The notes beneath the pieces were generated by a model. It did not search any database. It was given only the letters and a program-made list of their open reading frames with translations, and was not told the DNA's origin. A DNA stretch of 23,905 nt from Sarea resinae. Its lineage: Eukaryota. The position numbers were made by a program, and so were the translations under genes. Within the stretch, counting starts at the first letter, position 1. Each line of letters opens with the position of its first letter. The stretch lies in assembly GCA_026026165.1 (NCBI GenBank), contig JAPEUD010000011.1, positions 496,001-519,905 on the forward strand. Reading direction: 5' to 3'. Shown here piece after piece: positions 1-23,905 of this stretch.

Positions 1-367
1 AGATAAGTGCTAGACAGTTCTAAAGATATAGGAACCGCTAAATTATAATAGCGCTGCTATACTTAATAGTTGTTAAGTGTGTTACTATCTTAGGCCTTAC
101 TACTAATATATCTTAAAGAACTTAAATAGGTAGCAGAATAAGTGTATCAATTAATATAAGCTATTAGCCTATAGCCTAGTAACTAAGTAATAAGAAGAAG
201 AGAAGAAAACTAACGCGCTAACTGCTTGCTTAACTAAATGCTAGAAAAACTAATAACTCTTTAGAATGTATAAAGAACTAATAAATACTCTCTTTCTAAA
301 CCCCTAAGGAACATAACTCTACTACTAATACCTAATAACTAAGCTGTTACTAGTTTACCCTATTATA
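1..367 (-). repeat. 3' LTR of the gypsy element (truncated by window start)
   Basis: Aligns to 11532-11897 with 16 substitutions (all transitions) and one 1-bp indel by manual count. Ends TATTATA versus TATTACA in the other copy. Confidence 0.95.
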
Positions 368-380
368 TCTATCCTCTCTA
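368..380 (-). promoter_or_regulatory. Polypurine tract (plus-strand primer) of the gypsy element
   Basis: Minus strand reads TAGAGAGGATAGA immediately upstream of the 3' LTR. Confidence 0.7.
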
Positions 381-459
381 TAAGAGGAAGTTAGCCTATA
401 ACTTCTAAAAAGAAAAAGAAGATATTTAACTAAAAGAGAGTGTAGATAGGCATACTATT

Positions 460-3400
460 ATTATAGGTTCTCTCTGCGTTTCTTAGTTAAGTAGTAAAGA
501 GATAGATCTATTGCTTACTTATATAATTATAGTAGTTCACCTATTATAAGATTGTTAGAATCCTCTCTAAAGGGATTTAGCTGCAGTAAGGTTTAATTGC
601 AAGCAGATTGTTATAGCTAGGCTGCTAAATAGTGCGATCTATTGTTAGAACTTAACTCTTAGTAGTAGCTCTCTCCTTTAGGAGTAGCTATTTCTGTTAG
701 CGCTAGCAGATCTTCTATGCTAGGTGCAGGTAGTTCTCTTATGCTTAGAGCAAAGGACTTAGAATAAACAATTGCTAATAGAGCTATAGAGGTATATTGT
801 TTCTTTAGTTAGTAAGGTAGAAACAGGCCTTTAGCTTTACACTTATTAGGCTAGAGAGTGCTAGTCAGGCTAGAAGATATTAGGCTAATTATGCTAAGCC
901 TAAGCTCTAGAATAGTTTGCCTAACTTTAGCCTCTAGTAATAACTTAATATCTAGTTAAGTAGGAAATTTTTATCTAGCTAGGCTAGAAGATATCTTAAA
1001 GAGATTGTTATTATTGTTGTCCTTAAAGAGCTATAGATTGCTGTTATTGTCTTCTACTAACACATTATACTCCTTTAAATACTAATAGGACTTTTCTCTA
1101 TATAATTACTGCTTAGCTCTCTTAAACACTGCAAATACTACCTTATATTTTATAATTGCTTAATATCTCTACTTAGCTATAAAGAGCTTAGTAGTATCTG
1201 TATCTAGTCTAAAGAGAATCGCTTGCTGTTCTATAACCTCTAGATTATTATAGCAACGTTGCCTAACAAGTGCATCTAAAATAGCACTAAGCTCTATAAA
1301 AGAGACTACTACACTAAATTTGCTTAGAACTTAGCTGTGTATATTTAGGTGTCTTAACAGGCTATTTAGTAGAGGAACAAGGTTATAATATAACACTAAG
1401 AGCTGATCCTAGGTGCCTAAGCCTAATATTTCTAGCGTCTAATAGTCCTTTTTAATTGCTACTTTCTAAGAGTAGATAACATTGTACTTAGAGGTTAGTT
1501 TCTTTATCGCATTATAGATAATCTAAGGATCACTAAATCTAAGCCTAAGTTTAGGCATAGGATAGAGTGTCTTAGTGATTCTAAAATTATCTTTGTCCTT
1601 TACTATCAGCTAATTTCTATCTATCTAAGTAACATAACTATTATGTTTATAGAGCTTTAAATTACGCTCTTTTACCTCTACAGCCTAGTCACTAAAGATC
1701 TTATACTATCTAAGATATATATAGATACAGTTGTTATTATCCTTATAACTAAATGCAACTGCGCTTTGCACTATATTAATGCTAGTACTATCCTCTGCTA
1801 TTTTACAGATATTTTAGTCTAAATAGTAAAACCTTGTTTTATCCTCTAGTAATAACAACTTAGTATAGTAAGGGTAAGATATTAGGCGTTTCTTTTAGTT
1901 AGGCTAGAAGTAAATAGTTAACAAGTAGTGAAATAGATCTTAATTTAGTAGCTATTAGATAATAAAGTAGAATATAATACACACCTAGCCTAGATTTTTG
2001 TTGTTGTTTACTTGTTGTTAGTAGTATTTATAGACTGAAAATTCCTTAGCAATAGAACCTTCTATATCTATGTCTTACACAATCTAGCTATATATATCTT
2101 TAATAATTATAGATCTATTCTAGTCCTATTCTGTCTGTATCCTAGCACTAAGGAGTTTGTAAACGTATATAAAGTCTGCCTTAATAGCTTAATCTAGCTC
2201 TTCTACCTTTAATTAATACAATCTCTTAGTATCTGCTAGCCTCTCTAGTTGCGCTTTCTTAATAAACTATTAATAAGTTTCTTTTTAGAATCTAAAATCT
2301 AATAGATCTGCTAGTTAGGCTAGGAGTTGTTAGAAGTAGTCTGCTAACTCTTTATCTACTAGATTATTCTTAAGACCTAGTTGTAAAGCTATAGCTTTAG
2401 TATAGTTCTAGCACAGTGTTTTAACTAGAGAGTTCTCTTATATAAGTCTCTCTTAAGTCTAAAGAATTTGCAATATTACCTTATTAGTAGCTAACTTTTT
2501 ACTTATTATTAAGTTAATAAAATGTTTAGGTATTAGGTTAGAACAGGTGCAGCCTTTTACAACTAGTCTATTAGCTAGCTTAATATCTGTATTATTCTCT
2601 AGTTTCTTATAGCTAGGCTAGAAGATAAGTAGCGCAAGTAGTAAATCTCTAGCTTATCTAAATTCTGCTTTATCTATAGCAGTCTTCTTAGCAACTAGTC
2701 CTTTAATTAGCTCTTTACTATCTCTTATCTATAAACTATAGTTAGATTAGTTATCTGCAGGATTATCTTATACTAGAGCCTCTTTTATAGTGTTCTCTCT
2801 CTTAGTACAGTACTTTAGGATATTACATAGTCTAGTCTATACTAGGTCTACTAGACATAGAATTCTATTAATATTAATTATACCTCTAACCTTAATAAGA
2901 TCTTCTGTTGTAAACTAAAATAGCTTTAGTGTTGTTCTCTTTTAAAGTTGCTTTACTACCTTAGCTAGTCGCTCTTAATCTCTTAAGGTTTGCTTAACAA
3001 CTTTCTTAGAAAAGCCTTATTTACCTGTCTTTAGAAGTCTCTTTATAGCCTCTCTATTTGCTAGTTCTACCGCTTTAGCAAATCTGTACTAGGCTGCAAT
3101 CGCTTTTATTTAATCTATATAATTTCACAATATCTTAGCGTGTAATACATAGACAGCCTAATTATATCTCTATTTGTTTTCTATTTTCTTATGTCCTTTA
3201 GTAATACGCTTATTCTTATCTTAATATTCTTTAGCTAGCGCCTGTATCTGTAAGGATATAGCAGACAAATAGTTATAAACATATATAGTAAGGATAGAGT
3301 CTCTAGCTAATTTAGTCTTGTTCTACTTATAAAGCTATAAATATTAGTTATAGTATTTAGATATTTTGTCTGTAAAGGACTTATAAAAGGTAACCTTTGT

Positions 3401-3937
3401 AGTAGTGTTAGTAATTCCTCTAATATACTAGTGTACTACAGCAATGTTATAGAATCTCTAACTCTAGATTATTAGGAACGCTAATTGTTGCACAACTCTA
3501 GTAGTGTCTATCACCTTATTTATTGTATCTTCTAGCCTAACTAGCTGTTCTTCTAGTTTAGAAGTTTCTTAGGCAGATGCTAATAATAACTAGGCAGTAA
3601 TTTATTCTTATAGGTTGTTAGGTAATTGCTTTACACGCGATTCTTCTGCAAGTAACTCCTTAGCTAGTTTAGTTTAGCTTTATATCTTAGGTGCCTCTCT
3701 AGATTCCTTGCCTTCTATTTCTTTATTAATAATAGAGAGATTAAACTGTGTAGTAAGAGTAATAAAGAGGTCTTAGCTATTGCTTTTAGATAAGATTAAT
3801 AGTAGTGCTAGGGTTCTCTCTTTTATAGAAGATTACTAGCCAGCTATTCTTACTAGTTTAATCTTCTAGATAGTCTAGAAGATAAAGAGGAATAAGATGT
3901 TTCTAGAGTTAATAGATAACGTTCTAATTGTATACAT
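460..3937 (-). pseudogene. Extra ORF3 of the gypsy element: large protein with a Cys motif and a 2OG-Fe(II) dioxygenase-like (PhyH-like) domain, RIP-disrupted; ends approximate
   Basis: The same frame holds in the blocks translated between the ATG at 3937 and ~1000. It reads LISYPYYTK...FYYLD*NI (de-RIP FRHLD, 1817-1825), IVQSAVAF...NCIYIYLR*YK (MVQGAVAF...NCTYMYPGWHK), DP*IIYNA (DPRIVHGA, His at 1514-1516), K-Y(R)-NVIYS* (Arg at 1484-1486), then LSAILDALV and EKSY. GCTCS lies at 2543-2551. Confidence 0.75.
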
Positions 3938-4899
3938 GAATTTTTCTAGTTAGAGTTTCTAGGCGATTTTTCTCTTAGAGAATCTAGGAGATTATTATCT
4001 TATCTAATTAGTTAAGAGAAATAGCTTAGATAGAGTCTTAGTTATTATCTAATAAGGTAACAAACAGCAAGTGCTAATTATAAGCAAGCTAATAAGGTAA
4101 GAGGTATAAGCAAACTACTTAGGAAAGAGATCTATAGTAGGTGAATAATATAAGAAAAACAGATAAGATAGCAGCAGCAGAAATTGCATAAGAAGTAGGA
4201 AAATATTTAGAGAAGATAGAGGTAAGTAGGCAGAAGATATTTTCTTATAGTCTTTGCTTAGAGTGTATATAACTAGATTCCTACTAATAATCGTTAGATA
4301 TTAGCGTTAAAAAAGTGCTATCTTACTTTTCTTTATAGTGAATTTTAGCGTGTTATTAAGTTAAAGTAGTAGCAGTAGCGTTAGTAATACACTTAAGCAA
4401 GGTTCTTTATTACCTGTATTATTTCTTTGTTTACCCTTACTTTTAAGTGTGTTTTGCACTAAAAAGTAAGGTGAAAGTGAGATAAGTTTAAGATAAAGTT
4501 AAGCGAGTAATAAGAACAGTCTCTGCAATGCTAGTCAAGGCGAATAGTAGTAGTAAGGCAGATATATAGTGCTTGTGTAAGTTAGGAATACTTATTATAC
4601 AATTTTACTAACTTATAGCGTGTTGTTAAATTTAGATAGAGGCTGTATACTTTACAGTGTTACTCTTTAAGTCTGTCTAAGAGATTAGGCTAGCAGAGTC
4701 TGTTTCGCCTTAATATAAGCTAAAGAAGTAAAGTAATATAATGTGTAATAAATTAGAAATGTTATTGCAGATTGTTAGGTATATTATGCTATACAATATA
4801 AGCTGCGCCTCTTACACCTCTAGCAAGGTAGACTGTAGTTAAAAAGATCTAGCTAGATAAGGTTATATATATACACACCTCTCTCTAGTTTCTTTTAAA

Positions 4900-7800
4900 A
4901 CTTCTAGCTAGGCTAGAAAGTTTTGTGCTATATAATTAGCTAAGGTAAGATAATAATAGCGAATAATCTTCTGCAAGGCACTAAGGCTTATAAGGCCTTG
5001 TATTCTTCTTAAGTTACTTAATTATTATTATCCTTAAGGTCTTTAGACTAAGTATTATTAGTATTATCTGCTAACTTGTCTTTAATTAGATATTTAGGCA
5101 TAGAGGTAGGCAATTATATATTCCTTGCAGAATTAGGTAGAGAAGGTTAGCATATAAATTTCTTTAGACAATTTCTAGGTGCAGTGCTGTTTAACTTAGC
5201 GCTATTAAGTTTAGTAAGCTAGTAAGTTCCTTAGATAGAGTTAGCCTATATAATATAATAGAGACCTATCTACCTATAGCAGAGTTTGCTTTAGAGCGAA
5301 TAGTCTGTAGCAAGCTTAGTGTTATAGAGTAATACTATATTATTAACGTTAAATTTATCTAGGCAGAGATTATAAACTTTATTAAATGCTTCTTTACTTT
5401 ATTTATATATACAGTGTAGATATAGCTAGGTTTCTTATAGATCTTTATTGCAGCGTTGCATTTGCTAAGCCTATAATGCTAGTAATTCTATAGTAGTTTA
5501 GACTAAATTCTAGTCTAATACATGCTAGGTAGAAAGGTTTAATTTAATAAGTAAGACTATATTGTATCTATATAGCACTTAATAAGGTATCTAGCTAGTA
5601 GAAACTCAAACTATAGTGCAGTTAGCCTATAAGACTATATATAAGTTCTAGACCTAATTTCCTATGCCTCTATCTATTATCTTAGCTAGTGTATTAATAA
5701 TAGAGGTATAACCTCTTTCTACTAGGCTATTTTCTTGCAAGTAGTATACTAAGACTATAATGTGATTAATTCTGTACTTCTTTATAAGAATATATATAGA
5801 CTGCTTATTCTCTAGTCCTTTATTAGTAACTAGCTTCTAAAAGCATCTATAGCAGCAGATAATATCTTTATAAAGGAATTTAGCAATAGTAGTAGAGGTA
5901 GCGTCTTCTATAGCGCGTGCTTCTACCTAGCTAGAAAAGTTATCCTAGGTAACAATAATGTTCTTCCTATTCTAGCAAGCTAGTATATATATTATATTAA
6001 GGCTAACCTTCTTCTAATAAGTAAAAGACTAGGTTAGGTGTAAGGCCTTCTCTTTCTATTTAGAGGCTCTCTTCTAACACTCTTAGCAGCTCTTAATATA
6101 TATTACTACTTCTAGATATAGATCGCTCTACTAGTATCTATCTACAATACGCTAATAGGTGCCTTCTTAGCCTCTGTGTTCTCTTTAATTATAGGCCTTC
6201 TTTAGGATACAGGCTTTGTTAGTGTCTTAGTTAATAACTCTTTAAAGTAGTATATTCTTAAAGGCATACTTAAACAAGTGTTAGTTGCAAACTAAGAATT
6301 TTAGGGCGTGATTCTTAAACTTACAGAACTCTTTTGCGCTTATTTCTGCTAGCTAGACTAGAGAAAGAAGCTATTATACAATCTTCTGCAATTTGTCTAT
6401 ATAACTATTCTTAAGAGGTAATAGAGGTTCTACCTCTATACTATCGCTATTTATAGATATAAGAAAGACTTAAACAAGGTATAACTCTAAGTCTATTACA
6501 TTGTTAATATCTGCCTTGTTTTCTATATTAGCGATATCTTCTATAATAGCTAGCTAATAAGATAATCTATTAGTAGCACTATACTTTTAACTAAGAATAT
6601 ATTAAATAGTAAAGTTAAAAAGGCAGATCTATACAAGCTATTAAGTAATAAGAGCACTAGGAAGGTTAGCTACAAGCATATTAAGTTGTGTAACTAGGGT
6701 ATTAGCATTAAGTTCTACTATAAAGGTCTAACTATATAGGTAGACTTAGACTTTCTTTAGCGCCTTTAGCAGGCCTTAGCATTCTTACTTTCCTGCATTA
6801 TACTTTTTCTCTGCATTGTTCTAGAGTCTACTCTTAAATTAAATAGAGTGCTGTTTTCTAGTCTCTAGATTAACTTATATAAGGTTCGCTCTCTAGCCTT
6901 CTCTACTAGTATTAACTCTAAGTATAATCTCTTCTCTTTCTAGTCTATAGATAATTATCACTAGTGCTAGCGCAGTAGTAAGAGTGTACTTTAGCTTATC
7001 TATAGCTAACACTTAATCTAGTCTCTAGATAAATTTAATATCCTTCTTAAATAAGATAAAGATTAGCCTAGCAATAATAGCAAACCTGTTAATAAAGATC
7101 TTATAGTAGATGCATATGCTAATAAAAGCTCTAGCTTCTATAACATTCTAATAATTAGGCTATTTAATAATCTTTAGCACTTTAGTGCTGTTAGAGTGTT
7201 AGCTGTCTAAGTTGCAGACATAGCTAACAATCTTAATACCTCCTATATAGAATTAAGATTTCTCGCTAGATACTATATAGCTAGACCGCTCTATATCTAC
7301 TAGAACCTTATTAAGTGATTAGATATACTTAGCTATATAGCGCTTGATTCTAAGTAAAATTTCTTTGCCTTTATAGTTAGATTAAGGCCTTTTAACACTA
7401 ATGTTATCTAGAAAAGGTTGAGTAAGATTAGGAATATAGTTGCTAAGAATCTTTGTAATAATACAGACAAATTACACAACTAAGTTTATAGCTTCTTAAG
7501 GTAAAGTCGTCTAGTAAAGCAGGCCTAGAGGTGTTATAAAGGCAGTTATATCTTAGCATTCTTCTACTAGTTTAATCTAATTATATCCTAAGAAGAAATC
7601 AATAAGTGAGGCAACTTATATGCTAGCAAATTCCTTAGAAATTCTTCTACTAAAGGCAAGAGGTTTATGTCTTAAATTGTGACCTTGTTTATTGCTATTA
7701 CTATATTAACTATATAATACTTTCTAGACTTCTTCTTAACTAGAAACTATAGGTTTTAGTACAGTCTATAGTAGTGTTCTAGTAACCTATTCTTTAATTG

Positions 7801-8526
7801 TTCTTATAGCATTTTAATAACTACTTTGTTTAGTGCTTATAGAACTAAAAAACTATTAGCTTACTAAGCAGTATGCAGAATAGTTTGTATCTCTTACGCT
7901 AGCGCCACCTTCTTTTAGACCTTGCTAATTTCTAAGAAGTCCTATATAAAAGCCTTCTTATAATTATAAAGCATTGTAGTAAGTATCTCTTTCTCTTAAT
8001 CTAATATACTATCTTCTACAACTATTGTCTCTAATCTTTTAGGTGTAATGCAAGATCTCTTTTATAACTTTAAAAACTTTAGAATTAGCAACATATTAAA
8101 GTCTTCTTCTAGACAGTCTAGGTCTTTTTCATGTAACGTTCTATAGTTTAACATGTCTTTCTCTTCTAACTCTCTTTTCTAGTCTTTTACTCCTCTAGGC
8201 TTGCTACTATCTAACACTAAAGTGTTAACTAGTCTAACCTTATCTCTCTTTTTCTTATACATTGTATAGATATAGGCTGAGTTAACATTTCCTTTTAAAT
8301 TTAACTCTAGATTAAGTATCCTCTTAGAAAACTAGTAAGTTTTCTCTTAACCTATATATAATGCTTTAAACTCCTTAACTAAATCATTATTCTCCTAGTC
8401 TGTCCTAGAGAAATCTCTAGCCTTATTATCTAGTTTCTACCTATCTTCTTCTTCTAAGCCTTACTATGTTAGTCTTATAGTTATAGTAAACACCTACTTA
8501 GGATAGTGTCTGCTATCTAGTTTAAA
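4900..8526 (-). pseudogene. pol: Gypsy pol (RT, RNase H, integrase), RIP-disrupted; 3' end approximate
   Basis: RT: Y*NL*FLVKKKS, LIDFFLGYN*I, TAFITPLGLL..TTLP*EAIN, and QPFLDNISVK (FLDD motif, 7403-7414). RNase H: VNTSREG*R (VDASGEGWG) at ~6900. Integrase: HHCC at ~6075-6195, DNFSS*VEARA, LVTNKGLENK, NSLVERGY, and a GPY-like motif at ~5260. One 1-bp deletion near 7640. Confidence 0.95.
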
Positions 8527-11400
8527 TAGTTCTAGCTAGAGAATATATTAGCATGCCTTCTATTAGACAAACTTCTTACCTATGCTGCACTAAACATCTT
8601 TAAATAATGTTAGTCCTCTAAGAACACAGTGTATATTGTTATTCTGTTATTCTACACCTTAGTGTGTATATAAGCAGCAATCTAATACAGTTAACTAAGG
8701 ATAAGCAGTTAATCTAGTTAGGTAGTGATAAAAATAGGTACCTTGCTAGTAATACCTCTAATATTAACTTTAATATCTTTAGCGCATCCTATAAATAGTG
8801 CTAGCTTTCCTTTAATACTAATTATTATAGTAGCTAGTTAAGGAGTCTAACTTAGCCTAAGATTCTTTGCTATTAATAGGCTTATTAGATATATCTTAGC
8901 ACTACTATCTAATAATTCTCTTATTCTTCTTTTTCCTTTAATACTTACTTCTGCTATTATACACCTAGCAGCATATAATGTAGAATTTAGCATTTCTTTA
9001 TTAGTATAATTATTGCTTTCTATCTTTCTAACTATTACTAGGCGATCTATATTATGCTGTCTAGCTATAAGATAGCCTTCTAATCTTCTACCTAAAGAGT
9101 ACAACTTATCTCTAAGGTTCTTAAAGAAAAGCTTCTAAACTTTAGGCGCATTTAAAAGAAGATCCTTAACTATAACATAGTTAAGCTGCTAATCTAGTAT
9201 TATATCTATAATAGAAGTAGAGTTAGTGTCTTCTCTAAGGTAATTAGACAATCAGCGTTAATAAGTCTTTTGTTAATGTGTTTCTTCTACCTTATCTATT
9301 AGTTCTAGCTTAGCAAACTCTACTCTCTTCTTAGAACTACTAGCTAGACTAAGATATTACAAAGGCTGTTCTTTATAACAGACTATATCTCTCTTCTTAA
9401 GAACACAACTACTCTAGTACATCCTAAGGCAGATGTTTTTAGCTGCAGGCAACTTTTCTTCCTCTTAAATTCGCCTCTTATAGACTCTAGCATCTAGGTC
9501 TTATATAGGTTTCTATATAGTAGGGTTAGATCCTTACCTAAGGATTCTCTTAGGTTGTCTTACTAAATAGACATTTAATTAGTTATAGTTATTAGCTTCT
9601 ATATCTATATTATCTAGCTTAAGATCTGCTATATAAATAGAACTAACTCTTACTAAGTTAACCTCTAAACTAAGGCTTAGTTGCTCCTTCCTTTTATTAT
9701 ATATTCTTTTCTATTCTTTGTTAGCAAACAAGGCTTAATATTTGCTAGGAGAAATATACAACTCTGCTTTACCTTATCCTTTAAGACCCTAATATATTTA
9801 ATAACGTTTATTAAAATAAATCTTTCTACTTATAAAGAGCTGCTATATTAGCAGGCAATTAGCAAATCTATAGCGCTAGTCACTGTATCTAAAACATCTA
9901 GTCAATTAAGTATAGTTTGTATCGCGAGCTAGATCTACTCTATTATTCTACTAGCTAGTCTAGTAGTTTAGTGCGCTTATAACTTTTAAGGCAAAAGATA
10001 GTATCTAAGTAAAGAGCTTAGCAGTGTTTACAGCACTTGCTATAACTGCCTTAATTAGAATTATTAAGCTAGCTAACTTGTCTGCTAATTTATCTATAAC
10101 CTTATTAACCTTCTTACTTACTATTCCTTCTATATAATCTTATACAACTAGAGGTTAGAGTAGCTCTACTATAGCAGCCTTTAGAGCTAGATGCTGTCCT
10201 TTAATTAAGGTCTTTACTATCTTTATTAGCTCTGTCTTATTTAGCTTCTGCAGTGCCTATATAGATTAACATTGCTTAATAGCAATGTTAAAGATCTTCT
10301 TAAAGTTAATATTAGTAGAGTTGTAATTGTCTAGGTTAATATAGCCTTATGTAATAACTTTAACTTAGATCTCTTAGAGAAGGCCTTAGAGAAACTATAA
10401 CATATAAATATAGGTATTAAGCTTGTTTTTCTAGCATAGAGTTTAAGAGATACTTTAGAACTAACAATAATATTAGTAGATCTTCTCTGCATTTAAATAG
10501 AGTTTCTCTTTAAAGGCTTTAAGGTAAGTTTAGAAGTTGATTTGCTGCTCTACATCCTAATTAGAGTAGTCTTTTAGCAGCGATTTCTTAAACTTATCCT
10601 AATCTATAAGATACTCTAGTATAGTCTTAATACTATAAGATATAATACTCTTATAATAACGTAGGAGTCGCTTAAATATCTTAGTCTAGTTAAGCTAGTA
10701 ATCCTTACATAGTCCTTTATATCTCTTAAGAAACTCTATAGCGTTTACCTTATTAAAATATAGTATGCTATAGGTCCTAGAGGATAGTATAGGAGTAAGA
10801 TAATATATAGTAGGTAGAAATACAGTGCTAGCAGCTATTATAGGTAGTGTTAGTAATTCTAGTAAACTGTCTCTTAAAAAGTGTAGAGAGAAACGTGTTT
10901 GTATAGCAGTAACAATTGCAGCTGCAACAGAGTTTGCTGTTTCTTAAATAATTGCTTAAACAAATTATGTTAACTTATAAAGGCACTTGTCTTATTTGCT
11001 ACTTTTAACTTTCTTATGTTTAGACCTTGTCTTACTCTTACTAATCTACTTATCTCTAGTAGCGCCTTAAACATCTCTTAGCGCACTCTTTAACGTATAA
11101 TAAAGCTGTTCTTTCTATCTATTCTCTTTATATACTACGTGATAAACTGCTTTATTGCTAAATAAACTATAAGCTGTTAAGGATCGCCTCTAACCTCTTT
11201 AGATAAATAGCTGCTGCCTAACTATTTTAACAATAAGATCTAGCTAGTCTAGTAGAATTTTTCGTTGTGTAATCTCTAAACTTTATATCTTTATTTCTAA
11301 ATTCTTTTAAGGTCTTTGCAATTCCTACTTCTTATCTCTCTTATATTGTGCTAACCTTTTAGAGTCCTAATTGTATAGGCTAGGTTTTGTACTAGCCTTG
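8517..11400 (-). pseudogene. gag: Gypsy gag-protease ORF, RIP-disrupted (start approximate)
   Basis: Capsid-like YFNKVNAIEFLKRYKGLCKDY at ~10700-10770. Zinc knuckle CFRYSD*RYRFANC (de-RIP C-x2-C-x4-H-x4-C) at 9855-9896. Aspartic protease LLDSSA (LLDSGA) at ~8900-8915, within ORF-track 8847..9104. All three share one frame, which ends at TAG 8517-8519. Confidence 0.88.
8520..8526 (-). promoter_or_regulatory. -1 programmed ribosomal frameshift slippery heptamer T TTA AAC
   Basis: Minus strand reads TAT TTA AAC TAG in the gag-protease frame. The -1 frame is the frame of the RT N-terminus. Confidence 0.8.
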
Positions 11401-11479
11401 CAGATCTAGCAACCCTTCTATATATTCTTTAAGCAGTGTTTATACTTATCTATAGAGCACTTTCTAGTTAAATCTATAT

Positions 11480-11897
11480 TGTTTAAGCCTTATATAAGTC
11501 ACTAATATAAGGGATCAAACTAGATCGCACTAGATAAGTGCTAGATAGTCCTAAAGATATAGGAACTACTAAATTGTAATAGCGCTGCTATACTTAATAG
11601 TTGTTAAGTGTATTACTATCTTAGGCCTTACTGCTAATATATCTTAGAGAACTTAAATAGGTAGCAGAACAAGCGTATTAATTAATATAAGCTATTAGCC
11701 TATAGCCTAGTAACTAAGCAATAAGAAGAAGAGAAGAAAACTAACGCGCTAACTGCTTGCTTAACTAAATGCTAGAAAAACTAATAACTCTTTAGAATGT
11801 ATAAAGAACTAATAATACTCTCTTTCTAAACCCTTAAGGAATATAACTCTACTACTAATACCTAATAACTAAGCTGTTACTAGTTTACTCTATTACA
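11480..11897 (-). repeat. 5' LTR of the gypsy element (left boundary inferred)
   Basis: 11532-11897 matches 1-367, and the right end gives a minus-strand TGTAA start. The left boundary is a guess at the TGT at 11480, because the partner LTR is cut by the window. Confidence 0.85.
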
Positions 11898-12160
11898 CTA
11901 GTAGTAAAGCGTTATCTAGTAGCAAGACAACCTTTATATACTGCTATACTAGCTAAGTTCTTACGTAGAGATTTGCTACTAGTAATACAATAAGCCTTAG
12001 TAATAGACATTCTCTTACCTTTTCCTTTTCCTTTCCTACTAGTACTAGGGATAGTCTTATAGGTAGTACACTTAGTACAAGCTATTGTCTAGTAAAATAT
12101 TACTATTAAGTGTTACTAGTAGAGGTAGGAAAGAATAACTTACTGTATTAGTAACTATAA
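11898..12160 (-). pseudogene. Histone H3 N-terminal-tail-like gene, RIP-mutated and truncated by the gypsy insertion
   Basis: Minus strand 12055 to 11915 reads TIPSTSRKGKGKGKRMSITKAYCITSSKSLRKNLASIAVYKGCLATR. Reversing transitions only gives TGGKGKGKGKRMSITKARRITGGKSPRKNLASxAARKGRPATG, versus H3 [27 protein letters not shown]. Putative upstream intron 12143 to 12056 (GTAAGT...AAG). Confidence 0.7.
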
Positions 12161-12367
12161 TTATGTTAAGAGAGTAAGAGTGTAGTGTAGAGAGTGCTAA
12201 AGGAGAATCTTTAGTTAGTATTAAAGAAAGAATCTAGAGAGTTGTCTATAGTTAGAAATTATTAGCTAAGTGCCTTTATAGTCTTAAATATTACCTAAAT
12301 GTGTTACTATTAAGTAGTAGTTCTTAAACTTACCTTAACCTTAAAACTTAAAGAGCACTAAGAGAGA

Positions 12368-12820
12368 AATCTTAATAATGCTAATAATAGAAGTAATAAA
12401 GTTTATTAAGTCTTATTAGTTTAATAATAGAAGTGATAAAGTTAATAAGAGAGAGCAATCCTCTTACTATAGAAGAAAGTTGCTAATAATATAGGTAGTA
12501 AAGTTAAATTAAGTAGTAGACCTATATAATATTAAGGTAAACATTCACTATAAGGTATATACCTTAGTTAGTGTTATTAGCTAGTTAATAAGGTATATAC
12601 CTTGTAGTAAATGTTATTAACTAATTAATAAGGTATATACCTTATAGTAAATGTTATTAATTGTTTAATAAGGTATATACCTTTTACTTAAATCTTATGT
12701 GCCTAGTTCTACCACGCAATTTAACTTTACTACCTATATTATTAGTAACTTTCTTCTATATAAAGAGAAATGCTATTTTTTATTAACTCTATTACTTCTA
12801 TTATTAATATCATTAAGATT
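12368..12820. repeat. Inverted repeat (~120 bp arms, 12421-12540 and 12684-12807) enclosing four AAGGTATATACCTT palindromes
   Basis: Perfect 14-bp palindromes start at 12552, 12590, 12630 and 12670. Arm sequence ATAGAAGAAAGTTGCTAATAATATAGGTAGTAAAGTTAAATT is matched by its reverse complement at ~12718-12760. Confidence 0.92.
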
Positions 12821-12899
12821 TTATTAATTTTATTAATCCTATTAACTTTCTAACTGTTTAGGCAGTAGAAAGTTATAAGATAGGTAGCTAATTACTCTC

Positions 12900-14820
12900 T
12901 AAATCACTTATATCACCTATAAGCTCCTCTTAGAATAAGGCAGCTATAGAGAATACTAGTATTATAAAGAAGAGGTGAGTTTTAAACTTCTAAGTAAGAT
13001 AGAGTAAGGTGAAACTAACTTCTTCTTAGAAACTATAGCCTACTAGCAGCTTAGGTCTAAGAGTAATATATTAAGGTAATAATAATACTATAAAAGGCTT
13101 ATATTAGTGTAAGAAACAATAAAAGCTTAAGAAAGCAAAATCTAGCATAACTAAGCTAAATCTAGAGATAGAAGAATATAAAGACAATAATTAACTGCCT
13201 ATAGATCTTAATAATAGGGCTGTAAGCAATTCTCTATATAGTAGCAGCAGTTAGAAAGGAAGTAGTAATAAGAAGATAGATAGTAAGGCTAGGTAATGCA
13301 TTTAGGTAATAATATCTGTAAATATCTGCTAATAGTGCTACTCTAGTAATAGCAGCAGCGATAAAGTTAAGATAGTCTCTATAGTTAAGAAGATAAAGGT
13401 AAAGTTCTTAGATAAGGTTAGAAAAGCAAAGTTCTTAGACAAAGTAAGAAAGGTATATAAGAAGTAGAAGTAGTAACACATTCTAGTAACAATTCTAAAC
13501 ACAAAGCTAATAACATAATAGGACTATATCTAAGAGATAGAAGTAGAAAGAGACTAACCTTAATAATAAGCTAGAGAGCTTAGACTCTTCTACTCTTAGA
13601 AAGAGATATCTAAAGTAACACATTTAGGTAACATTGTTTGCTAGTGACTAATATTAGTGCAACTTATAGTGCAACCCCTATAACATCCTCTTATTCTAAG
13701 AGAACATTTAACCTAGAGATAGCTAGCCTAGTAGAACGTGTAAAAGCCTGCCTATAAAGACGTTATACTAGTAAGATAAGGCCTAGAATAGTTCTCTATA
13801 GCAAACAACAACAGATTGCTAGAGCGTAGCTTAAGGAAGCAAAGTCTAAAGCATTAGAGTTAGAGCTAGATAGTAAACTTAGCGATACTAAGTTTAAGAA
13901 GACACTAAAAAAAGCAGATAAAGCAGATAAGAAAGCAAAATCTACTTTAAGAGGCAAACTCTATCGCGAGAATAATTACACTAGTATAATAACAGCATAA
14001 TAATAAGACTTTAAAGAGACTGTTATAGACTCTAAAATAGACAAATTAATAGAACAACACTTTTTCCTCTACTAGTCTGCTAAGTAGGTTACTATATAGC
14101 AGTAAAAGGCTATTAAAGTAGAGAAAGCAAAGGCTAAAGATAATAAGCAGATAGTTAAGGATGTTGTTAATATCTTACTACTTAAAGACAATAGAGATAG
14201 CTAACCTAATAGTAGTGCTAATCCTAAGGTAACACTTTTAAGTAACGTTTCTTTATAGCATTTGTCTAATTAGTTTAGTAGAGATAAAATTTAGATAAGC
14301 CTAACTTATTATTTAGAGCATAGAGTAAACGCATTAGAAGTTGCTTGCTAAAAGTAGTCTGCTGCTATAAGAGAGATATCTACTGCTATAGCTATAATAA
14401 TCTAGTAGAAGCTAGTGATCTTAATCTAAAAGAGGTAATGTTAGAGTTTATAGAGCAGGTTAAAGACTATACAACTCTCTCTAATAGTAATATAGAGGCT
14501 AGGACTAATTTTGCTAGGTTTAGCAATTTAAAAGCAAAAGTGTTTCTATTATCTAATAAAGATATTAACCTAATCTTAAGTGATAAAGAAGACTTTATAC
14601 TGCTAACTATAGGAGAAAAAACTTAGCTAGAGAATATTCTTAAAAGAGAGGACCTTGCTATTACTAGATCTGCTATAGAGAAGGCTCTACTAATAACAGC
14701 TAAGAATGTTCCTATTAATACAAAGGAGAGTAAGAATAACTCTACTAATAATGCTAAAGAGAAGGACTTTAGTTCTAGTGCTACTAAAGATAGTAATAAG
14801 TAGAGAGGTAGTTATAGCTA
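12900..14820 (+). pseudogene. Multi-intron gene of unknown function (charged, likely helical protein), RIP-disrupted; ends approximate
   Basis: Fungal-type short introns, e.g. 12975-13029 (GTGAGT..CTAAC..TAG), 13293-13346, 13615-13657 and 14229-14278. The last intron joins the long frame 13683-14228 to the frame of ORF-track 14345..14626. No family was recognised. Confidence 0.6.
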
Positions 14821-15189
14821 AGTGGCTTTTCTTTATTAGTTTATATCTGCTTAGAGGTGGATTTTCACTTTTTCTCTAGAATTTAGTTTACTAAAAAGGT
14901 AACACTTACTAGTAACATTGTATATATTAATTACATTAGGAATGCACATTCTCTTAATTAAATTTTAGCTGTATAAACTCTCTCCTAATAACTCTAGTAG
15001 ATAGCTATATTGTATTACTCTCTTTATAGTCTCTTTACTATGTTTGTTTAGTTATACTAAACCTAGCAACCTTTAATATTAATATTTAAGCAAATACTTC
15101 TCTAGTTAAAGGCACTTCCTACCTCTTTACTCTGCTATATATTCTAAGGCCTTCTGCACTTTCTTATCGCTGTAAATTTCTCCTTTACA

Positions 15190-17968
15190 ATGTCTAATTT
15201 GTTTAAAACATTAGACTATAAAGAACTTAGAGATAGTATATAAAGGTCTACAGCTATTAAGTCTAAACCTATAACTATTACTTTAGCTTTAATTCACTAT
15301 GTTCTAAAGGTGTTACAAAGGGATTCTACATAGCGAATAGTTATCTAGCAGCAATTATATTATAATACTTTTATCTTCTAGTAGCAGCAGACTGCTTATA
15401 CAGATATAGGTTAATATAGAAGCCCTTAATAGAATTCTAAGATATAGAAAAGCATAACCTAGTCTCTCTTCTACTAAGTTGCTAATGTTATAACTAGTTG
15501 CTTAGAGGTAATGTATTAATAATACAGATGTTAGTAAGAGTATTCTAGTCTTAAAGAGATAGGCACTTCTGTAATAAAACAGCACTATAGCTCTTTAGAG
15601 TGTGTTTAGTCTCTTATAGCAGGTATAATACACACACTTAAGGCTCTTTAGACTATAGTAAGATATTGCTATATATAATAGATCTCTTAACTAATACCTC
15701 TATCCTTAATACTAGCAACATGCTTTAGCACTAAAGATTCTCTAAACCTTAGAGCTATTCTCTTAGTTAAGCTAGTAACACCTTCTTCTTAAGATAATTC
15801 TATTAGCAAATCTTCTATAGCAGATTATAGAAAACCACTAGTTTAAACAATACTTTCTCCTTTACTAGCTAGGCCTTTAAATTCTAAGGCGATAATAGGT
15901 TTATAATAACATTTATAATCGATATACAAAGATCTTACTAAGGATTCTACAGAGACTAGGCCTAGAAACTAAAATTTCTATTGCACTAGATATATAGCAG
16001 AGTCTAAATAAGATATCTTTTCTTTCTATAATAGAGTATTTTATTAACAAAGACTAGAATTACTAGGAAGTCCTTCTAAGGTTTAAAAAGATAACTAAAG
16101 AGCACTCTAGTTATAACATAGCTATGTTACTACTTAATTAACTTTAGTGTTTTAACATTTAAGTTTGTTTTTAATGTTTATAGTAACGCTTTTAAGTAAC
16201 ATTACATTATAGGATTATATACTAGCTGTAACAACAGATAACGCAGGTAATAATAACATAATACATTAAGAGCTAATAAGTCTACTTACTAATCACTATT
16301 AGATTGTATAGGATTATAAGATTATTTATATACCTTGCCTTACACATGTTATTTAGCTTACAGTTGTAGCTTTTAATAAGTGCCTAAAAATTACTGCTTT
16401 AAACAAGTTTATATAAGATACCTAGTTAGATACAAACTAAGAGCTACTTTAGCAGCTTCTTTTTAAAGACTCTTTTAGCAGCACATTGTAAAAGGTAAGT
16501 GCTAATAACCCTTATCTATTACTACCTCTAAAGTTTCTAGATTTATACACTTGCTATCTATATTACTGCTTTATTACAGCGAACTACACGCTTTTATAAT
16601 CTGCAGCTAACGCTAGTTAATATAATCTAAGATATTAAAACTTAATAGAACTTAATATATAATATGCTAAAGCAGGTCTAGTAGCTGTAAGATACTCTTT
16701 AGATATTTCTTATTAGTAAAACTAGTCCTACTATATATAGAACTTATGTCTCTCCTACTAGTTAGGACTATATTCGCTATCTAATTGTCTTACTAAAGCT
16801 ATTTAATAATTAGATAAGAGCTGTGTCTTAGACTAAAGGTGTAACTATCTATAAGACTTAGTTTATATACTCTTAGATTTTTAAGCACTTAGAGAAGTAT
16901 CTAAATAAGATACAGCCTAAGCAGATACTCTAGAAACAAGAGCTTACTTCTGCTATAGAAGTAGTAAAGACTAAGCTCTCTAAGTACTACTAAGATACTA
17001 AAAGAGTATAAAAGAGAATGTTTAATTTAGCATATATCTTTAATCCTTTAATAAGGCTTAATCTATATAAAGTATATTACCTAAATCTATTACCTTTACC
17101 TTATCCTCTAGAAATGTTTTGCTAATAGCTAAGAAGTCTAATAACTAGGGCTATAAATATTTGCGAAAGTACTAGCGCAAATTTAAGGACTATTATTAGT
17201 TGCATTATATAAGAACTAAAGTTACCTCCTTAGATATTACTACACTCTTTATATTAGCATTAGATATTAATTCACTTATATAGGCTAAGACACTTTAGAA
17301 ACAATATTACTTTGTTATAGATTTAGTTAGTTAGTATCTATCTTTGCTAGCTACAGATTATAAGGATCCTTTATAGGTAACACTTTTAAGTAATATTTCT
17401 ATATATAAGTGCTAACATTCTACTAGTTCTAGCAATCACACTACTAGCCCTTACTTAAACAAATAGTAAAAGACATTCTTACTATACTTAGAGCTGCTAT
17501 TAGTGTTAAATAGACTTTTAATAAGGTATAAAACCTTATTACCTTTTATTAAAGTCGCCTTTTAGTAGAAACAGTTTAGAACACTATAGTTGTAAAGTAC
17601 TTTAATTGTGATAAACTCTGCTTCTATATAGGTAAAGATAAATCTAACAGTATTTCTAAGGACACTAATTATTAACACACGCTATTAGCTGAATTTAATA
17701 ATTATTTACTTGTTATTAGTAATAATAATAAGCTAACCTTAGTTAATAGTAGTCCTATAATATAGGATAACACAGACCTATATAGGTTTTCTAGTAATAA
17801 GCACTCTTTACTACTTCTATCTCTACCTATAGTGCAGCTAGATAAACCTACTTTATAGTAGCAGTCTTTGCTTTAACACTCTAGGTATAACAACGCTTAA
17901 TCTATATTATCTTAAAGAAAGCGCCTGTATTTAACTGTAGATAATTTATTTATTAGGTTAAAGGTATA
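15190..17968 (+). pseudogene. hAT-superfamily transposase with 5 introns, RIP-disrupted
   Basis: ATG at 15190. BED-like finger (GTSVIKQH...C) at ~15450-15605. ISIALDI*QS (D at 15989), AVTTDNAGNN (D at 16237), PCLTHVI (CxxH, 16336-16347), DIKT**NL (DVKTRWNS), and dimerisation domain KDILTI..AAISVK*TFN (VER; E>K at 17508). Introns 15658-15715, 16163-16212, 16495-16540, 17072-17133 and 17377-17426 each restore the frame. Confidence 0.93.
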
Positions 17969-18330
17969 GAGGCTCTCTTTTAGAACTAGTCTATTTCCTT
18001 CTTAATTGTATAAATAGTTACACTTGTAGTAGTTTGCTTTATATATACTATAGCATATATTTATCTCTATTAGAGTAGAATTAGTTCTAGTAAAACATAC
18101 TATATTATAAAGGTTTAGAGGATGATTTAGTGGTTTTTATATAGTGTAGATTATATAGAACACTATAAACTAAATATATAGAGTGTATTATTATACTATA
18201 ATTCTTATTCTATAATTCCTATAGTTTTATTGCATTTACTCTCTAGATATTACCTCTATATATTACCTTTTAATAATCTTATCTTATTAATCTACTCTTT
18301 ATCTTATTAATTAACCTGTATATACCTAAT

Positions 18331-18455
18331 AGGTAGGCTATAGGCTCTACAACTAATTAAGCCTACCTAAACCTAACCTAATTATATAATTAGGCAGGCT
18401 AACCTACCTAAACCTTAATTTAGGCTAAGTACCTAAACCTAAGTAGATAGCCTAT
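18331..18455. repeat. Cluster of short ACCTAA(A)CCT/TAGGC repeats, probable hAT subterminal or terminal region
   Basis: Repeated ACCTAAACCT-like units and a perfect palindrome CCTAATTATATAATTAGG at 18377-18394, ~370 bp after the transposase end. Confidence 0.55.
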
Positions 18456-18456
18456 A

Positions 18457-20200
18457 AAGAAGTATCTAGGTGTAATTGTCTGCTTAGAAAGAATCTAAAT
18501 AAATAAGAGCGTCTTTATATAATAAGAAGATAAATAATAAGCCTTAGGCTAAATTATATTAAAGTGAACTTAGTTAATTATAAAGAGAATACACTAATAG
18601 GCAGACAATATATATCTAATAACACTTAGACTACCTTATACTTAGTAGAACAGCAATAAATAAGCAGTAAGGTAAATTAAACTATAAGAGAATCACCTAT
18701 AAGATTCTAAGATCTTCTAATAAATAGATATCCTATATATAGGTCTACTACTAGTTAGAAGGCAGTAAAACAAACTAACTAAAGAGATATCCTTTAAAAG
18801 CCTAACCTTTTTAACAGATAACTACTAAGAGAGCTTTATATATAAGATCTGTTAATAAACACCTTCTAGAACAAATTATTAATACTACTTCTACTATTAT
18901 TAGTAAGTCTTACTCTTAGAGTACTTGTTTTTAATTTTGCTTATAGATAATAGGTTCTAAGCAATAATAAAGGACTCTTATCCTCTAGTCTCTATTCTAA
19001 AGCAGTTAGTATTAACTTAGACTCTACCTCTATATATGTTTTTAATAAGATAGATACACTAAAAACACTACACTAATTATCTAGCACTCTATAGACATTT
19101 ACAAATAATTAGAGTGCAGGTTTAAGTTAGCTTCTTACACTAGATATAAGAGTATATATAAAGGTTTAAGTGTATTTAAAAGAGTGCTATCTACACTATA
19201 GGTATTAGAATATTTATCTAATAGCTAAGGCAATAATAAAAATATATATTATTACTTAAGACTCTTTCTTAAAAAGCAATAGTATAGCTACTATCTGTGC
19301 TAACATATAGAACTAGGCTTATACAAAGGCAAAGGTAATTAAGATAGAGCATTAATTTCCTTATTCTATTAAGGACTCTAGATAATACAAAATAGAGCTG
19401 CTTATATATATTAAACCTATAGTAAGTAAAACTATTAGGTGATATTTCTACTATCTACCTACTAACTCTAAATAATTAAATCTTATTAGCTATAATTTAG
19501 AATAAGCTAGTAATAAAGATATATTATATTATAATGTTATTAACTAGTAGTAGACCTATATAATCTGCCTCTTACTAAACTAGAACAACTTAAGAGAAAA
19601 GTAAGTTAACTACTAGATTAAGATAGTTTTAACTGTTAAGATATATCTATCTATATACAAATCTCTTTACTTATTTTAGTTAGCTAATAGTTTTTAGAGA
19701 AGGAAAAAGAGATTATTCTACCTAGTAATTATATATATTATACTTAAAGAGTTCTTTAATAAAGTCTAGAAACTAGCAAATATTAGTTATATATTAGATG
19801 CTTTTAAACAGATTACCTATTAGCTAATATATATTGTATCTACTATACTCTATTACACTCTCTTTAAATAAGAAGAAAGAAGCTTTACTTCTTAAGATTT
19901 TACTAGAGATAGTATAAGTAGTAAGTAACTAGCTAGATATAATAGCTAATAAATAATATAATAGCTAATAAACACCTAAAGGTCTACTAGCACTAGGTAG
20001 CTACATAGAATTTTCTAAGCAGTTAGTAGTAAAAAGCTATCCTTCTACTAATAAAGAAAGCTATTAATAATAGTAATACTTTAACTCTTAGAAAAGTCTA
20101 TATTCTAATAGAAGAGTTCTATAATAATAGAGAAGAGAATCTAGAGTATTAAAAAGTATTACTTAAAGAACAAGTTAAATTACAAACCTAATTAGCTAGA
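18457..20200 (+). pseudogene. RIP-degraded coding relic(s) of an unidentified repeat
   Basis: Protein-like stretches such as RLFYLVIIYIILKEFFNKV*KLANISYILDAFKQITY*LIYIVSTILYYTLFK (~19700-19870), and intron-like GTAAGT...AAG at 19601-19640. Family not identified. Confidence 0.3.
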
Positions 20201-20846
20201 GCAGATACTAAGTAGTATATTAATAGTTTATATTATTATTAACTAACTAACCTATTTTCTTAGTTAGTAGATTTGCTATATAATTAACACTATTTTTTGC
20301 ACTATATAGACTCTATATAATAAGTTATCTATACTATATAGTAGCTACTAAAATACATGTGTATTCTATATTTATTAGTAATATAGTAGGTGTCTATATA
20401 TATTTTATCTAATCTCTAGAGATTAGTAAGTATAACTACTAGAATCTACTATAGTCTAGTAGTAGGTAAAAGAATAGTTATATAGTTAATACTAATATAT
20501 TATATAGAAGATATATAAAGTTAGTGTATTCTATATAGTACTATAGTAGCTGCTACTTAAACTACTATATATATAGCGCTACAGTATTAACTGTTTATAA
20601 TGTAAGTAATATAGGTTATATAGCGCACTTATAGTCACTTATAGCACACCTCTCTTTTTACTAATATAGTAGAATCTATACCTACTTAATACTAGATAGT
20701 AGTTAATATAAATAGGTAGTTTATAAAATATTAATTAATAAAGTAGTATAGTAAATAAAAGCAGTTATTAGTTTGTTTAGGCTATATAGATCTACTTTAT
20801 AGGCTTGCTCTATACTATACTATAGATATATATACCTAATAATAAA

Positions 20847-20997
20847 GTAAGTAGAGAAAGGTGCTAAAGAAGTATAGAATATTTGTTTATTATAAAGTTA
20901 GAGATTCTAGCTATAAGAGTGTAATGCAGTTAATATATAGACTTAATTAAACTTAACTAACTTACTAAAAACTTCTAGTAATAACTAATTACATAAC
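20847..20997 (-). repeat. Older copia LTR fragment (opposite orientation), interrupted by the next element
   Basis: Reverse-complement match to ~21367-21510 and direct match to ~23802-23905. It is more TpA-converted than either. Confidence 0.85.
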
Positions 20998-21532
20998 TAT
21001 TAGAATTATAACCTTAATTCTAGTCACTCTTAAGTATCTAGACTATTATAAAATATTATATAATAGGTAGTATAGATATATCTAGAAGCTTTTATAGACC
21101 TATAGAAGCTAATAGAACTCTATAAAAACTCTATAGAATCTTATAGAACATTCTAAAAGATTTTATAGCTATACTAACTAAGTATTACTATATGCTAACT
21201 AAGTATCTAGAACCTTCTAAAACTCTCTAGAATATTCTAGAACTATCTAGAAGTCTATAGAATCCCTTAGATATCTATAGAACTCTATAATATAAGGGTT
21301 ACACAACTATCTCCTAACTTTCTTACAAAGCATATGTTATTATCAGCCTATTACTTACAAATCACTTATGTAATTAGTTATTACTAGAAGTTTCTAGTAA
21401 GTCAGTTAAGTCTATATATTGACTGCCTTACACCTCTATAGCTAGAATCTCTAACTTTACAATATATAATTATTCTACACTATACTTCTTTAGCACCTTC
21501 CTCTACTTATATCTTTGTGCTACCTTCTAACA
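20998..21532 (+). repeat. 5' LTR of a Ty1/copia element (535 bp)
   Basis: Termini TATTAGAA (RIP'd TGTTRGAA) and TTCTAACA form a short inverted repeat. The 3' end matches the LTR end at 23779. Internal TAGAA-rich repeats. Confidence 0.8.
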
Positions 21533-21541
21533 GTTACAAGC

Positions 21542-23778
21542 TCAAATTCCTATAGCTGTCCTAAATCAGTATTAGAATGCACTGTTACAAGCACAGTCCT
21601 AGAAGGTACTGCTGCAAAGCTATAAAAAGGCACTGTTACACCTAAAGCTTCCTATAGCTGTGTAAAATCCAAGTTAAACAGCATTGTTACAGAGTAGATT
21701 CTTAACTCAGGTGCAACAACATATATCTGCTATAGAAAGGAACTCTTTAACAACCTTAGACCCTATAACACTACTGTAAAGTAGGGTAACACTAGTAGTT
21801 CTACTATAGCAACACGCATAGAGGATATCAAGCTAATATTTACCCTAACAAATCAAGTTGTAAATATTAGAGATGTCCTATACATCCCTAACTTTAGTGT
21901 AAACCTGCTATCTCTAGAGGCAATTATAAATAAGGGCTCTAAAGTTAACTTCAGCCCTAAAAATGTCCTTATCCTAGATAATAAGGGTAGTGTCACTGCT
22001 AAAGAGACCTATACTAATAAGCTTAGTGTCTTTTAGACTAAGGCTATACCTATAGTGCTAAATAGCACTATAGAGGATAATAGCCTAGATATATAGCATA
22101 AAATGCTAGGATATATAGAGGAAAGCGCTCTAAAAAGGCTAGAGAACAATGTAGAGCTTAGTGTTAAGTCTAAAGACTTAGATATTAAAGACTGCACTAT
22201 TTGCTTAGAGGCTAAATTTACTAGATATGCTAGTGAAACCCTTGTAGAAAAGCCTAAGGAATACCTTAAAATTGTATCTAGTGATATAGAGAGTCCTATA
22301 AAACCCCTAACACTTAGTAGTAATAAACACTATATAACCTTCTTAGACCTAGCTATAAAATACCTTAATATTTACCTTCTAAAACATTAAAGTTAAACCT
22401 TTAGCAAATTCAAAGAATATATTGCTAAAGAGGAAAATCAAAGCCTAAAAAGGCTAAAAAGATTTTACTTAGATAATGCTAAAGTCTATAATAACACTGT
22501 GTTCAAGGAATTTCATGCTGAAAAAGGCATTATAGACTCTTATAATGCACCTTATACCTCTAAACAAAATAGCCTAGCAGAAAGGATTAATAGGACCTTA
22601 CTTAATAAAGTAAGAGCCCTACTAAATCAGGCTAATATCCCTAAAAGATTCTAGAGAGAAGCTATCCTAGCTGCTATATACCTCTATAATAGGACCCCTA
22701 ATAGCTCTATAGGCTATAAAACACTCTATAAGCTAAGGTTTAATAAAAAGCCTAACCTAGATCACATAAAAATCTAGGGTTCTTTAGCCTATAAGAGAGA
22801 GCCTAAAGAACTAATCAAAAAATTAGATAATAGAGCTAAGCCCTATTACCTAATCAACTATAGCTCAAATCAATACAAGCTGCTAGACTCTAAAACAGCT
22901 GAAACAATCTAGGCTAGAGATGTTAGGATTATAGAGAACACATTCTATCATTCTACAGAAGGCTATACCCCTAACCTAGAGGCCCTAGAGGAGCTAGAAA
23001 AGGATACATCTGATCTAGAGGATAAAAGTCCTATAGGTATTGAAAATTCACCTCCTACACCTGCTGTAACAGTATAGGAAGAACCTGTAACAGTAGAAGA
23101 TTAAAGTTCTATAAGTGATGACAATTCAGTCACACCTGACATAATAGACACTGATAGTGAATCTGATATAGATAAGCTAAGCAGTGAATATTATGCAAAT
23201 ATAGCTAGCACCCCTAAGCAGCAACAGCACTATGCAAACTTCATGCAAAATTTCATAGTTTGTAACAGTCTGCATACAAGGGGGAATCACACTGTTACAG
23301 ACACCTATAGAAGTCCTATAGATGTGTCTGATCCTAAGAGCTATAGGGAAGCTCTAAAGTCACCCTATAAAGAGGAGTGGCTAAAATCAATGCAGAAAGA
23401 GCTTACTAAGCTAAAAGAGCTAGGAGTTCTAAAGCTAGTCCCTAGACCTAAAAATGCCAATATAATCAATAGCAGGTAGGTCTATAAAACAAAGCTAAAC
23501 CCTAATAATACAATTAACAAAAGGAAATCTAGGTGGGTTGCTAGAGGCTTCCTACAAAAGCAAGGGGTTGACTATACAGAGACTTTTGCACACACTAGCA
23601 ATCCTACAGCTATAAAACTACTACTAGTCATAGCTGCTAAACTAGATCTAGAAATATATTAGTAGGATATAGCTTCTGCATTTCCTAATGCTAATCTAGA
23701 TAATCCTATCTATATAGAGCAGCTAGAGGGTTTTATAGAAGAAAAAGGCAAAGTCTATCTTCTAAATAAAGCCTTATA
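21542..23778 (+). pseudogene. pol: Copia pol (protease, GAG-pre-integrase/integrase, RT N-terminal part)
   Basis: *ILNSGATTYIC (WILDSGATTHIC) at 21695. I*HKMLGYI...CTICLEAK (HHCC). SDIESP, LDNAKVY and QNSLAERINRTL (DDE). RT: PKSYREAL, *VYKTK, KSRWVARGFLQKQGVDYTETFA, *DIASAFPNA, KALY. Includes ORF-track 22103..22390 and 23243..23479. Confidence 0.95.
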
Positions 23779-23905
23779 TGTTAGAAGGTAGCACAAAGAT
23801 ATAAGTAGAGGAAGGTGCTAAAGAAGTGTAGTAAGAATGATTGTGTATTGTGAACTTAGAGATTCTAGCTATAGAGGTGTAAGGCAGTCAATATATAGAC
23901 TTGAC
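23779..23905 (-). repeat. LTR end of a younger same-family copia copy inserted antisense into RT
   Basis: Begins TGTTAGAAGGTAGCACAAAGATATAAGTAGAG, the exact reverse complement of the LTR end at 21532. It interrupts the KALY codons. Confidence 0.92.

Follow-up and report, generated by a model that had tools for sequence, protein, structure and literature searches.

Transduplication of histone H3 by a hAT transposon was reportedly described by Manning et al. in 2013, in Pyrenophora tritici-repentis. In the account of Dhillon et al. 2019 (Mob DNA 10:37; PMC6710886), of which sections of the text and of supplement 2 form the basis of the comparisons with published elements made here, a hAT element of about 9.5 kb took up H3 coding sequence in retrocopy form; it has a 20-bp TIR, a target-site duplication (TSD) of 8 bp and one or two H3-like copies. 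The family is recorded in these sections for six Mycosphaerellaceae, with 784 copies in Pseudocercospora fijiensis and 135 to 520 in the five related species P. musae, P. eumusae, Cercospora zeae-maydis, Sphaerulina musiva and S. populicola. In the six species every transposon-borne H3 copy is described as a pseudogene inactivated by RIP and located in AT-rich blocks only, 94% of the copies match exon 3 only, and in Table 1 the repeat copies are separated from the gene by about 100 transversions (PMC6710886). The authors dated the capture event before a split about 100 Mya and, in the same sections, saw no sign of function in the H3-like copies. They also describe, in P. tritici-repentis, an independent H3 capture by a hAT that is unrelated at the nucleotide level, a recent event with little RIP and with putatively functional copies (PMC6710886).

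We report the analysis of a stretch of 23,905 nucleotides from Sarea resinae (GenBank assembly GCA_026026165.1, contig JAPEUD010000011.1, positions 496,001 to 519,905 of the forward strand), which we refer to as the window. It contains a short, RIP-altered and multi-copy sequence derived from histone H3, which neighbours a hAT transposase remnant and is interrupted by a Ty3/gypsy retroelement. This sequence is very probably a non-functional relic of H3 coding sequence that was captured and multiplied by a hAT family, killed by RIP and cut by the gypsy insertion; the resemblances described below suggest both that the hAT captured it and that it belongs to the lineage of Dhillon et al. As one more RIP-killed, transposon-borne H3 fragment it has little weight in itself, the phenomenon having been published in 2019 for certain fungi pathogenic on plants. 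The locus is of use in that a RIP-aware reading recovers gene relics missed by Pfam and phmmer, and in that the arrangement of the cargo is possibly a different one, with the H3-like piece divergent from the transposase.

The H3-like sequence lies on the minus strand. Its downstream piece, at 11912..12012, had been noted in a first-pass annotation, which quoted the 27 codons at 11995-11915 and, by reversing C>T and G>A changes, aligned them with H3 residues 7-33. The codons are exactly as quoted and the reading ARR.TGGKSPRK.LAS.AARKGRPATG is permitted; it matches H3 at 18 (reference gene L016) or 19 (L015) of the 27 positions, compared with 10 of 27 on direct translation. Preceded by MSITK, the piece translates from 12010 to 11912 as MSITKAYCITSSKSLRKNLASIAVYKGCLATR* and ends in TAA (stop codon 11914-11912), after which the last 14 nt of the frame (11898..11911, minus strand, with a CTAGT flank at 11898-11902) lead up to the retroelement insertion. 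The ATG at 12010, to which the annotation drew attention, is indeed present, but the ATA at 12085, which is derivable from ATG via G>A, makes a better H3 start.

That ATA belongs to a second, upstream tail piece (12035..12087, minus strand), which shares frame and strand with the 27-codon stretch and lies 90 nt upstream of it. From 12085 its codons are ATA GCT TGT ACT AAG TGT ACT ACC TAT AAG ACT ATC CCT AGT ACT AGT AGG, which with RIP reversed read M A R T K (R/C) T A R K (T/A)(A/V/I/T) P (S/G) T G G. This corresponds to H3 residues 0-9 fused to roughly 27-34, and looks as though a deletion had removed what separates the two ARKS motifs. The K9-equivalent codon of this piece is AAG (12058). 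At position 12052 a C is found in 12 of 12 other contigs of run X1, giving GTC there in other copies. A (GGAAAA)-like microsatellite on the minus strand at 12013..12034, which reads KGKGKGKR, separates the two tail pieces, and the same stop-free frame runs upstream from the downstream piece through the microsatellite to the piece at 12085. With 58 codons this frame is unremarkable, since the window has 24 such stretches of at least 55 codons. The tail is represented by about 35 codons, and the sequence is derived from an H3 tail that is partly duplicated or rearranged. A possible extra tail fragment at 12837..12866 (minus strand; TA*TVRKLIG against TKQTARKSTG, 9/10) is alone at noise level, with a rough P of about 0.06 for such a match on the same strand within 1.5 kb.

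To score these matches, each codon was assigned the set of residues that it could have encoded before C>T and G>A changes (a mean of 2.25 allowed residues per codon) and 19 real H3 genes with the tail pattern, including L015 and L016, were used as references. The runner-up to the 27-codon match, over about 47,600 window positions, scores 15; because a score of 18 was reached by one of 40 Markov-1 random windows, the 27-codon stretch alone is only moderately significant. The complete 11912..12012 piece has a gapped RIP-aware score of 26.5, where 20 shuffled-protein controls gave a maximum of 22. In the upstream piece, 12085-12056 matches MARTKQTARK at 9 of 10 residues and is the sole window position to reach at least 9, while none of 40 random windows had one; 12067-12035 matches AARKAAPGTGG of L015 at 11 of 11 and is likewise the sole such position in the window. 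All 127 H3 ten-mers taken together gave 7 matches of 9/10, compared with 4-19 in nine shuffled or reversed controls. Single ten-mer matches are therefore at noise level and the weight rests on the in-frame, colinear adjacency of the pieces. Adding up the three in-frame matches gives a chain statistic of 39, whereas 150 Markov-1 windows averaged 27.0 (sd 0.88) and reached 30 at most. The two upstream matches overlap by 4 codons; with the overlap subtracted the chain scores 35, which is still above 30. A phmmer search of PDB with the 32-aa ORF of the H3-like piece gave 0 matches.

The first-pass annotation had further proposed a search for the histone fold beyond the tail. By RIP-aware matching no histone fold was detected above shuffled controls anywhere in the window, and the histone fold domain (Pfam PF00125) is absent from its open frames. 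Where the P. fijiensis layout predicts H3-like copies, at 18455-21400 (+), the scores are 16.5-19.5 against a control maximum of 24. A candidate at 10423 (+), LFF*HRV*EIL*N, which agrees with LPFQRLVREIAQD at 11 of 13 positions, was rejected, as the match goes no further and is on a par with the shuffled controls. The original description of a histone H3 tail-like gene apparently carried by a hAT transposon is correct as to an H3-tail-derived sequence that is associated with a hAT family, altered by RIP and interrupted by an LTR element; with a stop, the gypsy cut that follows it and no histone fold, its reading as a gene is unsupported.

The GC content of the window is 23-36%. RIP is usually taken to be indicated by TpA/ApT above 0.89 and (CpA+TpG)/(ApC+GpT) below 1.03, and the window has 1.78 and 0.55, respectively. 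The H3-like sequence is surrounded by an AT-rich block that carries the CpA>TpA signature of RIP. Start-codon ORFs of more than 95 aa are absent from the window, in which the longest stop-free stretch (124 codons) lies in a copia pol. Other genomic copies were compared by placing contigs of run X1 at 80% likeness or more, runs X2 and X3 containing next to none of the region. The differences among these copies likewise point to RIP, most being transitions: A>G 529, T>C 480, C>T 251 and G>A 222, as against 101 transversions. Summed contig depth is about 14,600-15,000 over 11340-12673 (about 14,600 in the bin 12007-12673), compared with about 400 for single contigs, and 6,800-10,800 over 12674-20000; the H3-like sequence amounts to about 35 contig equivalents in run X1, a figure that expresses summed contig depth and not exact copy number. 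The depth and the predominance of transitions among the differences imply that the H3-like region is part of a repeat family and not a single-copy pseudogene.

A RIP-mutated Ty3/gypsy LTR retrotransposon occupies 1..11897 on the minus strand. Its two LTRs, one at 1-367 and truncated by the window start, the other at 11532-11897, share 97% identity with 1 indel, and the substitutions inspected in their alignment are all transitions. Between the LTRs, at about 7003-6061 of the minus strand, Pfam detects RT-RNaseH and then integrase (RT_RNaseH 4.5e-8, RT_RNaseH_2 5.7e-8, Integrase_H2C2 3e-4). The LTR at 11532-11897, previously labelled a 3' LTR, is the 5' LTR of this minus-oriented element. The insertion cuts the H3-like sequence at 11897/11898, so that the 5' LTR abuts the H3-like frame 17 nt past the G33-equivalent codon. 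CTAGT at 11898-11902 may represent the target-site duplication, the other flank lying outside the window. The gypsy element was itself hit by RIP after its insertion. In one contig of run X1, hAT position 18059 is joined via 11 other letters to gypsy 11513, just inside the LTR, which implies another genomic site where the hAT and gypsy families nest differently.

About 4 kb from the H3-like piece, which sits upstream and on the opposite (minus) strand, the plus strand carries a RIP-degraded remnant of a hAT transposase (16156..17767) that extends from the catalytic core to the C-terminal dimerisation region. The translation shows the motifs TTDNAGNN, *DYK..IPCLTHVI*L and DILTILRAAISVK*TF, which are common to many of 120 fungal-type hAT loci from metagenome contigs with the TTDNA[ST]NN motif. 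We accept the remnant as hAT transposase because the RIP-aware BLOSUM alignment of residues 256-784 of the 805-aa ORF of L060 with 16156-17767 (+) scores 155.5, against 77.5-97.5 for five shuffled controls and 78 for the minus strand. The R/Y pattern of the ITTDNASNN codons has 2 matches, one of them at 16228, where 0.89 are expected, and is not significant alone. Conventional searches were blank for the hAT: Pfam gave 0 families in six frames of 11896-16000 and, in 16000-23905, copia pol only with no hAT family, and a protein homology search with the X-read translation of 16000-17799 yielded 6313 candidates with 0 at E <= 0.01.

The copia-type pol detected by Pfam lies at 21698-23783 (+) and runs off the window end (RVT_2 1.3e-22, SH3_retrovirus, Pol_BBD, rve_3, gag_pre-integrs). 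It is less affected by RIP than the rest of the window, with a GC content of 35% and a CpA index of 0.89, and is flanked by inverted repeats at 21405-21553 and 23758-23905.

At 18331..18454 on the plus strand lies a candidate for the right end of the hAT, comprising subterminal region and terminus (..CCTAAACCTAAGTAGATAGCCTA). The CCTAA(A)CC repeats at 18366-18454 are the sole such cluster in the window, and loose contig ends are found on both sides of 18454 (among the 6 of 179 loose ends listed for run X1). By eye, this end resembles those of Pmu_cons, Smu_cons and Pfi_cons as given in supplement 2 of PMC6710886. The loose ends at 18454 also hint at tandem repetition, in other copies, of a unit of about 146 nt (18455-18600). 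The stretch that begins there, 18455-21400, is the most AT-rich of the window (GC 24.5%) and is repeated as much as the hAT body in run X1. No left terminus of the hAT was found between 11898 and 16000, and this end may be located on the far side of the gypsy insertion, where the window does not reach. Two candidates were rejected: the P. fijiensis TIR, used as a RIP-tolerant pattern, gave 11 matches where 10.4 are expected, and a left end CAGAC.. at 15388 (22/24 in R/Y code) has a flank without an 8-bp duplication. At 13800-14900, stop-free stretches are clustered on both strands, with 100 codons of K/E/D-rich low complexity from 14324 (+), which recalls the K/R/E/D-rich stretch near the left end of the P. 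fijiensis consensus as presented in PMC6710886.

The relic most likely arose as follows. A hAT DNA transposon family would have captured H3 coding sequence by transduplication and multiplied this cargo along with itself, after which RIP converted C to T and G to A throughout the copies. In the window copy the N-terminal tail alone survives, partly duplicated or rearranged and ending in a stop. A later Ty3/gypsy insertion severed the tail from its continuation, before RIP struck the gypsy in turn.

The residence of the H3-like piece and the transposase in one shared element is putative. Given their divergent strands and the absence of a left terminus between 11898 and 16000, either the element extends past the gypsy and arranges its cargo differently, or two copies lie side by side or nested. 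The H3-like piece could accordingly sit in another hAT copy, minus-oriented and with an internal deletion, or in some other repeat, that abuts the plus-strand hAT, and so be no cargo of the transposase-bearing element, a possibility of real though limited plausibility. The strand is opposite to that of the arrangement published for P. fijiensis (PMC6710886), 12007-12673 exceeds 12674-20000 in summed depth by a factor of about 1.5-2, and a foldback with 165-nt arms (12367-12835) stands between the H3-like piece and the transposase. Against it, between 11898 and 16000 there is neither a terminus-like GGTTTAGG cluster nor an inverted match to the 18454 end, and an R/Y self-dotplot of the window reveals no second hAT copy or transposase fragment. 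Such a separate copy would be a variant of the relic explanation preferred here and not an alternative to H3 transduplication. The foldback itself has arms of about 165 nt that are 87% complementary and enclose 3-4 tandem 40-nt units, each with the palindrome AAGGTATATACCTT, and may represent either a MITE-like insert or some subterminal structure.

The H3-like relic is functionless today and its sole effect is bulk in an AT-rich repeat block. A past function is a different matter, and the first-pass annotation had suggested a tail decoy lacking K9 that helped the element to escape silencing. Its observation on the codons holds: TGT, at the K9 position, can derive by transitions from C or R only and ATA, at the K23 position, from A, I, M, T or V only, so that neither comes from Lys in this way. 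An ancestral, un-RIPped element might then have encoded a working H3 variant or tail mimic, for instance one that interfered with H3K9- or K27-based silencing, of which the window would hold the corpse. The retention of H3-like cargo in the hAT of six species, after an event placed before the split about 100 Mya, is in keeping with this, as is the second, independent capture in P. tritici-repentis with its putatively functional copies (PMC6710886). We nevertheless hold a working variant to be very unlikely. The window copy has stops and no histone fold, and substitutions in the tail are expected of a decaying pseudogene, as illustrated by the transversions of Table 1 in PMC6710886. The decoy idea in particular is weakened because the upstream tail piece retains K9 as AAG and because the copies in the six species, as far as the published account consulted extends, are all pseudogenes in which the authors saw no function.

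At least two independent captures of H3 by hAT elements in Dothideomycetes, together with a cargo kept since about 100 Mya (PMC6710886, in the sections cited), may mean that the un-mutated cargo, with its altered K9, S10 and K23 positions and duplicated tail motifs, was once of use. That it worked for the transposon as a variant or mimic of the H3 tail, perturbing heterochromatin or RIP-linked silencing, and that the window preserves a differently arranged member of this lineage with its cargo divergent from the transposase, is a long shot.

A chance resemblance in lysine/arginine-codon-rich, RIP-mutated DNA, for which the latitude of the de-RIP reading, the random window that equalled the 27-codon match and the noise level of single 9/10 ten-mers might speak, is excluded for practical purposes, unless the null model is badly wrong, because the three colinear in-frame matches outscore all 150 random windows, and the known hAT-H3 families furnish a strong prior besides.

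Compared with canonical histone H3, the window copy, once RIP is reversed, has recoverable MARTK.TARK, TGGK.PRK.LA, AARK and P.TGG motifs; unlike H3 proper, it lacks the histone fold, contains stops, has a rearranged tail and lies in a repeat context. The association of a hAT with H3 coding sequence is shared with P. tritici-repentis, where the copies are putatively intact whereas that of the window is degraded (PMC6710886). From the family of the six Mycosphaerellaceae, so far as the sections of PMC6710886 consulted present it, the locus differs in several respects. It retains an H3 tail only, without the histone fold, whereas 94% of the published copies match exon 3 only; TIRs of 18-20 bp and an 8-bp duplication were not found in the window; and in Pfi_cons the transposase shares its strand with both H3-like copies, which are downstream of it, whereas the piece described here lies upstream on the opposite strand. 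Its H3-like sequence differs, by eye, from all six Mycosphaerellaceae consensus sequences, and a 12-mer search of supplement 2 of that paper gave 0 matches.

There are also resemblances to the same family, judged on the same sections of PMC6710886. In both, H3-derived sequence lies near a hAT transposase with the motifs TTDNA[SG]NN and PCL.H..QL; by eye, the published consensus transposase reads ITTDNASNN and FPYLAYIVQI, the latter against IPCLTHVI*L in the window. The published ends are of the form TAGRC.. with CCTAA(A)CC-type subterminal repeats, and the window end is similar by eye. Like the published copies, the window copy is multi-copy, lies in AT-rich RIP DNA, is full of RIP stops and has a rearranged tail. 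Rearranged or duplicated H3 tails are also a feature of the published consensus sequences, Pfi_cons having a GKAPRKTTA-like unit three times by eye, and S-I-A at H3 positions 22-24 is, again by eye, common to Pmu_cons and the window.
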